A program made the position numbers and the translations under genes. A stretch of DNA of 43,500 nucleotides from Escherichia coli (lineage in GTDB: Bacteria > Pseudomonadota > Gammaproteobacteria > Enterobacterales > Enterobacteriaceae): assembly GCF_003334255.1 (NCBI RefSeq), contig NZ_QOWU01000047.1; one strand, written 5' to 3'. The notes below the pieces were generated by a model that was not told the DNA's origin, ran no database searches, and saw only the letters and a list, made by a program, of their open reading frames with translations. Positions 3,533-4,798 of this stretch are shown here, piece by piece (positions within the stretch are counted from its first letter, which is position 1; each line of letters starts with the position of its first letter).

Positions 3533-4798
3533 TTACGGTTTGAAGTCCAATGGCGCGTTTTTGAACACTTCATATACTGCCTGGCTTGGTGGTTTCGGGA
3601 TCTTCGCAAGTTTAGCTGCTGCCAACGCAGCCTGACAAAGTGCGGGATCGCCACCTTCAGGTTTGATATCCAGTAACATACCATCGGGTGCCAGTTTTAT
3701 GCGCAGCGTACAGGTTTTGCCTGCATAGGACGATGCGTCATAGAACTTACTTTCGATAGCAGATTTAATCTGCCCGGCATAGTTATTGATATCGGCCCCT
3801 GATGCGCCATTGTTTTTAGTATTACCACTCCCGGCAGGCGAAGCATTGTTCCCTTTCGCCCCTCCCCCCGTTTTCGGTGCATTCTTACCAGAGCTTAGCT
3901 CACCGAAAATATCATCTGCCTCTGCGGCCGCTTTTGCTGCAGCGGCTTTTTCAGCTGCAGCTTTTGCCGCTGCCGCTTTTTTGTCTGCGGCGGCTTTTTC
4001 TGCCGCTGCTTTCTTATCAGCTGCTGCCTTTTCAGCAGCCGCTTTTTCTGCTGCTTTTTTGTCGGCTGCAGCTTTCTCTGCTGCCGCTTTCTTATCAGCT
4101 GCAGCCTTTTCAGCAGCCGCTTTCTTCTCAGCTTCTGCTTTGGCTTTTTCAGCAGCTTCAGTTGCCGCTTTCTTTCTTGCTTCAGCTGCAGCTGCTTCTG
4201 CCGCTTCCGCTTTCTTCTTCAGTGCCGCAGCGGCTGCCTCGGCTTTTTTCTGCGCTTCGGCTGCGGCTTTGGCGGCTTCTGCTTCTGCTTTTTTCTTTGC
4301 GTCTGCAGCCGCTTTCTTCGCTGCTTCTTCCGCAGCTTTAGCATCTGCTTCGGCCTTCGCTTTAGCATCTGCCGCCGCTTTCGCTGCCGCCTCTTCAGCT
4401 TGCTTCTGCTTTAACTCGGCCTGTTTTGCGGCTTCTTCAGCCTGCTTTTTCTGCTCCTGAGCCGCTAACCGCTCTTTCTCAAGTTGCTTCAGGCGTTCCT
4501 GTTCAGCCGCTTGTTTCTCACGCAGTTCTTCAGCAGCCTGCTGTTCCTTCATCTTGCGCTGTTCATCAGAACGCTTCGCGCTTGATTCCTGGCTTTGCAT
4601 GCGTTTGTACTGCTCAACTACCGCACCTGAATCAACCATGACAGCGTCGATGGACGAACCACCGCCGCCTCCGGCTGAAGCTTCTATATTCTCATCGAAC
4701 GAACTCCAGATCAGCGCCGCAAATAAGATGACATGCAGCACTGCTGAAATAATTATCGCCCGCTTGAGCTTGTCGTTTTGTTCGGTTGCCTTTGACAC
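3533..4798 (-). CDS. tolA: Tol-Pal system protein TolA (N-terminal TM anchor, long Ala/Lys/Glu-rich helical domain II, C-terminal domain III)
   Basis: 421-aa ORF MSKATEQNDKLKRAIIISAVLHVILFAALIW... with highly repetitive AAEKAAADKKAAAEK region encoded by near-tandem DNA repeats. Confidence 0.95.
   Translation of the reverse strand: MSKATEQNDKLKRAIIISAVLHVILFAALIWSSFDENIEASAGGGGGSSIDAVMVDSGAVVEQYKRMQSQESSAKRSDEQRKMKEQQAAEELREKQAAEQERLKQLEKERLAAQEQKKQAEEAAKQAELKQKQAEEAAAKAAADAKAKAEADAKAAEEAAKKAAADAKKKAEAEAAKAAAEAQKKAEAAAAALKKKAEAAEAAAAEARKKAATEAAEKAKAEAEKKAAAEKAAADKKAAAEKAAADKKAAEKAAAEKAAADKKAAAEKAAADKKAAAAKAAAEKAAAAKAAAEADDIFGELSSGKNAPKTGGGAKGNNASPAGSGNTKNNGASGADINNYAGQIKSAIESKFYDASSYAGKTCTLRIKLAPDGMLLDIKPEGGDPALCQAALAAAKLAKIPKPPSQAVYEVFKNAPLDFKP

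Follow-up and report, generated by a model that had tools for sequence, protein, structure and literature searches.

The repeat tract of the tolA gene in Escherichia coli was already described in 2012 (Zhou, Vanoirbeek, Aertsen, and Michiels, Res Microbiol 163:316; Zhou, Michiels, and Aertsen, PLoS One 7:e47766, PMC3477136). According to these authors, tolA of strain MG1655 carries 13 imperfect repeats, each 15 or 18 bp long, and PCR sizing together with Sanger sequencing of 234 isolates revealed alleles of 8–16 units, with 13 units in 66% of them (PMC3477136). Contractions arose in clonal cultures at a frequency of 6.9 × 10^-5, a deletion of five units was the commonest contraction recovered, and less conserved units upstream of the tract were also reached by deletions; expansions were not seen among 150 colonies in the laboratory (PMC3477136). 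In a recA mutant, contraction took place at 15% of the parental frequency; it was 3.3-fold higher in a uvrD mutant, and mutS was without effect (PMC3477136).

The same study examined the phenotypes of constructs carrying 2–39 units (PMC3477136). The more units a construct carried (between 2 and 39), the higher was its deoxycholate tolerance, with differences of four orders of magnitude; for high salt at pH 5, there was an optimum of 6–13 units. Plating of phage fd was reduced to 28–43% for every variant with a unit number other than 13, and tolerance to SDS and salt was restored by all of the constructs. The large phenotypic effects come from constructs of 2–39 units, whereas the natural alleles have 8–16 units (PMC3477136). 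The phenomenon, its frequency in clonal culture, its genetics (the RecA and UvrD dependence) and its phenotypes have therefore been known since 2012 through the work of others, and the feature is an ordinary one. Here, we describe the same locus in a window of 43.5 kb (the whole stretch of E. coli DNA that was analyzed) and compare it with tolA in 5426 complete E. coli genomes.

Architecture of the tolA Repeat

In the open reading frame (ORF) list of the window, tolA occupies positions 3533..4798 on the minus strand; it encodes 421 aa from a GTG start codon and represents the K-12-type “13-repeat” allele. Among complete E. coli genomes, an allele 100% identical to it is carried by the K-12 derivatives and by many other strains. 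The product scored far above the cut-offs of both TolA equivalog models, NF007065 of NCBIfam (554 bits, cut-off 213) and TIGR02794 (308 bits, cut-off 59), and residues S18 and H22 were unchanged across 36 homologues. The ORFs flanking the gene correspond to tolR, tolQ, and ybgC upstream and to tolB downstream, and the arrangement ybgC-tolQ-tolR-tolA-tolB-pal-cpoB is also found in the RefSeq annotation of 12 of the loci fetched for comparison (L001–L012). In the same operon, downstream of pal (1513..1651, minus strand), a full-length Rfam CpoB/ybgF intercistronic RNA thermometer was recognized with 142 bits (gathering score 51).

At 3921..4141, Tandem Repeats Finder (TRF) revealed a set of overlapping arrays nested in each other, the periods being 15, 30, 33, 45, and 78 bp. 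The top array has 2.0 copies of 78 bp with an 88% match (score 255), and the tolA array is the sole intragenic tandem array with a TRF score of at least 80 within the window. The primers of the published study map to 3926..4132 (minus strand; 207 bp, aa 223–291), so the locus is the same and the window carries the wild-type 13-unit allele of those authors (PMC3477136). The imperfect 15- or 18-bp units of this published tract, 13 in number, encode pentapeptides and hexapeptides of the KAAAEK/AAADK type; the tract is located in the second arm of domain II as predicted, and it is here that most of the length variation occurs. The protein tract reads KAAAEK AAADK KAAAEK AAADK KAAEK AAAEK and so on, and our own parse likewise gave 13 units, of 5–6 residues, at aa 226–292.

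The higher-order repeat of 78 bp (26 aa; 2.0 copies, 88% identical according to TRF) lies at 3970..4128 on the minus strand, and both of the longest exact direct repeats belong to it, one of 20 bp (4026–4045/4104–4123) and one of 17 bp (4008–4024/4086–4102). Degenerate repeat units, AATEAAEKAKAEAEK, extend upstream of the published tract (4133..4175, minus strand) and are deleted in the O157:H7-type alleles and in the allele L007. The 12-bp direct repeats that bound these upstream-unit deletions are located at 4082–4093/4163–4174 (81-bp spacing) and 4116–4126/4164–4174 (48-bp spacing). A minor repeat site, a 24-bp unit (ADAKAKAE) in 2.2 copies by TRF, was found in the first arm of domain II at 4321..4385 (minus strand); it carries a 14-bp exact repeat, 4335–4348/4359–4372, with the copies 24 bp apart. 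Overall, the window contains direct repeats at spacings that match observed indels: the 20- and 17-bp repeats at 78 bp, a 12-mer at 81 bp, 11-mers at 33 and 48 bp, and a 14-mer at 24 bp.

The initial annotation of this region, made from the sequence alone, stated that the central part of TolA is encoded by imperfect tandem repeats, and the TRF arrays, the mapped published tract and the codon-order shuffles described below all bear this out. The extent of 3900–4500 that it gave holds in part: 3900..4141 is the true array and 4321..4385 a minor one, whereas 4386..4500 is only low-complexity coding sequence rich in E/Q/K/A.

The distal 19 aa of the repeat zone, KAAAAKAAAEKAAAAKAAA (aa 274–292, units TR10–13; 3923..3979, minus strand), form the common end of the zone in 20 of 20 alleles, namely the window and 19 fetched alleles compared by their common suffix; L017 and L018 are longer only by an extra KAAAA copy upstream of it. 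These residues overlap the segment at TolA residues 280–313 that was reported to bind CpoB/YbgF (PMC8928145, PMC3477136).

The repeat was compared with chance by three statistics, the longest exact repeat, the number of repeated 12-mers and the best in-frame offset identity, with 1000 shuffles of each kind. Codon-order shuffles, which keep the composition, reached the observed values in 0–6 of 1000 cases (4 for the 20-bp repeat, 1 for the 12-mers and 0 for the offset identity), which shows that the periodic order is real. Synonymous-codon shuffles, which keep the protein, reached the same three values in 114, 166, and 110 of 1000 cases. The DNA repeat is thus essentially dictated by the repeated A/K/E/D peptide: the periodicity is that of the peptide, and the synonymous sites are scrambled among the units. 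These shuffles rule out a DNA repeat more uniform than the protein demands, as would be left by recent duplication or homogenization. The identity of DNA between units is not above the level imposed by the protein, hence there is no sign of ongoing homogenization, and the exact homologies are short, not exceeding 20 bp.

Another tandem array in the window is intergenic. It comprises 3.0 copies of 91 bp with an 87% match at 18197..18470, between two minus-strand ORFs, and contains matches to the Rfam family naRNA4 (REP-derived) at 18215..18286 and 18306..18377; one more match to this family is located at 22749..22819.

Length Variation Among Complete Genomes

A megablast search of 5426 complete E. 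coli genomes with tolA found the gene in every one of them. The 178 rows sampled from these genomes comprised 18 lengths of tolA, from 1119 to 1311 bp (372–436 aa), all of them multiples of 3. The range of the tandem-repeat zone, represented by genes of 1185–1311 bp, is equivalent to 8–16 units. In an evenly spaced sample of 59 full-length rows, the gene was 1266 bp long in 41, the other lengths being 1185, 1215, 1221, 1233, 1251, 1263, 1275, 1290, 1296, 1299, and 1311 bp. For a second evenly spaced sample we used a synthetic query composed of two unique anchors around domain II, the span between which gives the gene length in each genome; here, 1266 bp was found in 38 of 59 rows. The 1266-bp allele thus accounts for 64–69% of evenly spaced rows. 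Lengths of 1119, 1227, 1230, 1260, 1272, and 1281 bp were met once each among the 178 sampled rows. All 19 fetched alleles represent an intact CDS, and none was flagged as a pseudogene. The initial annotation had suggested that expansion and contraction of the repeat would change the length of TolA, and that an identical repeat count in all strains would speak against this; the 18 in-frame lengths, the indels between short direct repeats and the differing genomes with identical flanks (see below) confirm the former and refute an identical count.

Anchors from an O157:H7 allele were used in the same way, and the best 60 rows were considered; most of them belonged to O157:H7, and the others were O55:H7 or further strains sharing the anchors. 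The O157:H7-type rows among them had genes of 1185 bp (21 rows), 1215 bp (22), 1275 bp (5), 1119 bp (1, strain PV15-279), and 1230 bp (1, strain 472). The other rows with identical anchors were of 1266 bp (7, including O55:H7) or had the single lengths 1233, 1272, and 1296 bp. Re-sequenced or close strains were equal in length, as seen in 86-24 and the NADC derivatives, in three FRIK isolates and in the K-12 laboratory strains. The tolA lengths appear coherent within presumed O157:H7 sub-lineages (clades), and the alleles look stable over clade-level timescales. Therefore, the term “hypermutable” would overstate the natural rate of change.

Low-complexity repeats are error-prone in assemblies and some lengths were met only once, which raises the question of whether the length differences are artefacts of sequencing or assembly. 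We consider this extremely improbable. All of the records are complete-genome assemblies, the lengths in 178 of 178 sampled rows are multiples of 3, and individual alleles are met again and again in assemblies made independently, apparently following presumed O157:H7 sub-lineages. Moreover, the alleles differ by clean block indels without any other mismatch between them. The 234 isolates of the published study, sized by PCR and sequenced by the Sanger method, also yielded a range of 8–16 units and the same modal frequency (PMC3477136).

Two of the 5430 tolA matches were located on plasmid-labelled records, and one genome had two places. The protein homologue search, in which 8000 candidates were scored and low-complexity words dominated, returned only more distant Enterobacterales and no E. 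coli or Shigella TolA clusters. Among the protein matches listed were TolA clusters named Providencia rettgeri, of 348–377 aa, and a P. hangzhouensis cluster of 383 aa. The P. rettgeri clusters suggest that the length of domain II varies within species outside Escherichia as well.

Indel Sites and Breakpoints

In the 19 fetched alleles, all indels fall within domain II or in the linker that joins it to domain III; domains I and III are invariant in length. Most indels are concentrated at aa ~209–279 (K-12 protein numbering), and a minor site is located at aa ~140–165. Changes in the domain II–III linker comprise two of 6 bp and one duplication of 39 bp. The clean single-event indels have junction homologies of 8–66 bp and no other mismatches. 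Compared with the window, L004 has gained 30 bp through a perfect tandem duplication, L006 has lost 33 bp with an 11-bp junction homology and L009 has lost 45 bp with an 8-bp junction homology, each with 0 other mismatches. Perfect tandem duplications do, therefore, occur in natural alleles. For L005, L007, and L011, which are compared with the window across phylogroups, the model of a single event was rejected, since 17–45 residual mismatches remained, indicating more than one event together with SNPs. L007 and L011 were resolved by comparison within their lineages, while L005 retains 10 residual mismatches against L002.

The loci L001, L003, and L011 of the O157:H7 lineage have 0 differences in their 6-kb flanks, yet their tolA genes are 1185, 1215, and 1275 bp long, and the pairs are related by clean single indels of 60, 30, and 90 bp. 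Identical flanks with three different lengths show that the change was recent and took place at the locus itself. The pair L002/L007 is similar: it differs by a clean 48-bp indel with a 12-bp homology and by 1 SNP in the flanks.

These data also bear on the possibility that the alleles are old and stable and were spread by homologous recombination of the tol-pal region instead of arising repeatedly in place. Such a history could account for the 10–19 linked SNPs that separate the tolA alleles of different phylogroups from the window, as well as for the recurrence of the 1311-bp allele as a block. It would hardly produce three lengths on one identical 6-kb background with 0 SNPs, or a pair such as L002 and L007 separated by a single flank SNP and one 48-bp indel. 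Furthermore, 4 of the 24 rows whose anchors are 100% identical to the window are of non-modal length, and deletions are known to arise in clonal cultures (PMC3477136). Spread by recombination is thus very unlikely to be the main source of the variation, and we retain the reading that block indels arise repeatedly at the locus.

Several changes lie outside the published 13-unit tract. In L008 and L019, the 24-bp unit encoding ADAKAKAE is duplicated (window 4335..4372), resulting in alleles of 429 aa (WP_000030668.1), which make up ~2–3% of evenly sampled rows; this site belongs to the proximal arm. Two alleles combine two changes each. The shortest allele, L013 (NZ_AP018488.1, O157:H7 PV15-279; tolA 241–1359), encodes 372 aa and carries the Sakai-type deletion of 81 bp (27 aa) in the distal arm (window 4094..4174), as well as a deletion of 66 bp (22 aa) in the proximal arm with a 9-bp junction homology (window 4317..4382), which overlaps the minor 24-bp site. 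The allele L014 (NZ_CP025903.1, strain 300709; tolA 241–1467) is separated from the window by a deletion of 78 bp and a duplication of 39 bp, both of them clean. The deletion (26 aa, distal; window 3986..4063, 11-bp junction homology) matches the 78-bp higher-order repeat. The duplication is a perfect tandem one (13 aa), GELSSGKNAPKTG × 2, and is situated in the Gly-rich domain II–III linker (window ~3866..3904), outside any pre-existing repeat. The 78-bp higher-order repeat would also explain why the deletion of five units predominated among the contractions recovered in culture (PMC3477136).

Open Reading Frames on the Opposite Strand

Two long antisense ORFs are present in the ORF list on the plus strand opposite tolA, one of 224 aa, rich in A/S/F (3786..4460), and one of 154 aa, rich in L/P/Q (3877..4341). 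Being long and free of stop codons, they could be taken for real overlapping genes; however, shuffled synonymous versions of tolA reproduce antisense open runs of like length. When aa 113–338 were recoded by synonymous shuffles, the antisense stop-free runs averaged 132, 208, and 110 aa in the three frames. Ala accounts for 55% of the tract, Lys for 24%, Glu for 13%, and Asp for 5%, and the antisense frames stay open because the codons are almost solely GCN, AAR, GAR, and GAY, the complement of which contains no stops. In addition, the lengths of the antisense ORFs shift with each indel in tolA, and RefSeq annotation of the 5426 genomes lists tolA only, with nothing on the opposite strand at this place. 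There is, therefore, next to no chance that these ORFs are genes; we rejected them as compositional artefacts, in agreement with the initial annotation, which had called the long ORFs on this strand spurious.

Predicted Structure of Domain II

An AlphaFold model discussed by Webby et al. shows domain II of TolA as a helical hairpin (PMC8928145). Our AF2 prediction for TolA of the window gave helices at residues 5–34, 57–177, and 182–299, followed by an alpha/beta domain at 334–419. The predicted turn is located at residues 178–181, the pLDDT is ~90 over the repeat zone, and the repeat tract belongs to the second arm. The indels do change the length of domain II, as the initial annotation had supposed for a periplasm-spanning helix, but the predicted fold is a two-armed helical hairpin and not a single helix. 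In such a hairpin, the gain or loss of n residues would alter the reach by about n/2 × 1.5 Å if the turn slides, and by n × 1.5 Å only if the domain were fully extended. A physical change in periplasmic reach would be the probable consequence of the length variation.

For the 372-aa allele (L013), AF2 placed the turn ~8 residues off the homologous position, with arms of 88 and 98 residues. In this single case, the shift of the turn may represent a compensation that keeps the arms roughly equal, and the predicted turn placement in this short allele hints that the turn slides so that the arms remain matched. Going further, one could propose from the double changes in L013 and L014 that the length changes in the two predicted arms are co-selected, and that the O157:H7 lengths (394, 404, and 424 aa) reflect an adaptive tuning of the envelope and not neutral clade markers. 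We regard this proposal as speculative and unlikely.

Discussion

Our analysis documents the repeat in tolA, its polymorphism, the location of breakpoints at direct repeats and the change in length within a single lineage. We are highly confident that the feature corresponds to the intragenic variable-number tandem repeat already known from E. coli tolA, in which in-frame block indels at direct repeats modulate envelope phenotypes. The distal half of domain II is a run of 5- or 6-residue units, Lys(1–2)-Ala(3–4)-(Glu/Asp), and the 15- or 18-bp units that encode them are in turn parts of higher-order repeats of 33 and 78 bp. In the proposed mechanism, short exact direct repeats of 8–20 bp, spaced by multiples of 3 bp, misalign in the course of replication or recombination, and this would lead to in-frame deletion or tandem duplication of whole blocks of 15–90 bp. 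TolA would remain functional with a shorter or longer helical spacer, and the length of the spacer would modulate deoxycholate tolerance, growth at high salt and low pH and susceptibility to phage fd. As contraction is largely RecA-dependent (PMC3477136), unequal recombination matters, and replication slippage alone does not suffice; the initial annotation had named slipped-strand events, but the genetic data of that study speak chiefly for RecA-dependent unequal recombination, with a RecA-independent remainder.

TolA links the TolQR motor of the inner membrane to the outer membrane, and outer-membrane stability, tolerance to bile salts and the entry of colicins and filamentous phages all depend in part on how long and how stiff its spacer is. 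An in-frame repeat that sets the spacer length thus provides E. coli with heritable variation in these traits. Whether selection acts on this variation is a separate matter. The tract could be a mere spacer, neutral within a tolerated range, the length of which drifts and serves neither adaptive tuning nor bet-hedging. This is a possibility to be taken seriously, if a doubtful one: domain II of TonB can replace that of TolA with partial function (PMC10666116), and the constructs of 2–39 units all restored tolerance to SDS and salt, while natural alleles span just 8–16 units. On the other hand, the modal length (64–69%) is the same across phylogroups, which suggests stabilizing selection, and both the four orders of magnitude in deoxycholate tolerance and the fall of fd plating in all non-13 variants (PMC3477136) speak against neutrality. 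The 13-unit allele is probably under stabilizing selection, and we continue to favor the reading in which the spacer length modulates envelope phenotypes.

In comparison with the work of Zhou et al., the range of 8–16 units is the same and the modal frequencies are close (66% in their study and 64–69% in ours). In all essentials the two studies agree, and experiments of the kind that the initial annotation had proposed are likewise found in the literature. Theirs was based on 234 isolates, whereas ours covers 5426 complete genomes and places the breakpoints at direct repeats. Outside their tract, we found the 24-bp unit at 4335..4372, the 66-bp proximal deletion and the 39-bp linker duplication. 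The additional indel sites, the alleles with two changes (arm and arm, or arm and linker) and the apparent coherence of lengths in O157:H7 are not obviously covered by their study (PMC3477136), and they are minor points. The present contribution is a confirmation at the scale of thousands of genomes and not new biology.

A similar tandem repeat is known in the orthologous tolA of Salmonella Enteritidis, where SENTR1/SE-10 was selected among the loci of an MLVA scheme for strain typing (PMC2430564); the repeat in E. coli is itself a handy strain marker. SENTR1/SE-10, which we liken to the present locus by its description, belongs to another species and has a 45-bp unit as defined there, with 7.8 copies (PMC2430564). 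TonB is a homologous force transducer, the domain II of which is also repetitive and spans the periplasm, and this domain is partly exchangeable between TolA and TonB (PMC10666116); domain II is reported to differ widely in length from species to species (PMC12204202). The two differ in that domain II of TonB, with its Glu-Pro/Lys-Pro dipeptides, is a polyproline-II rod, whereas that of TolA is an alpha-helix. Zhou et al. applied the term “contingency locus” to tolA (PMC3477136).

Like the phase-variable contingency loci of Haemophilus and Neisseria, tolA shows repeat-mediated, heritable and reversible variation. The rates of change at tolA appear much lower than those at phase-variable contingency loci. 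The latter act as on/off switches through frameshifts in simple-sequence repeats, whereas the units of tolA are multiples of 3 bp and the sampled alleles are in frame. On/off phase variation of tolA was rejected on the basis of the sampled lengths (178 of 178 being multiples of 3) and the 19 of 19 intact coding sequences. Since its units and alleles preserve the reading frame, the repeat in tolA modulates the protein rather than switching it on and off.
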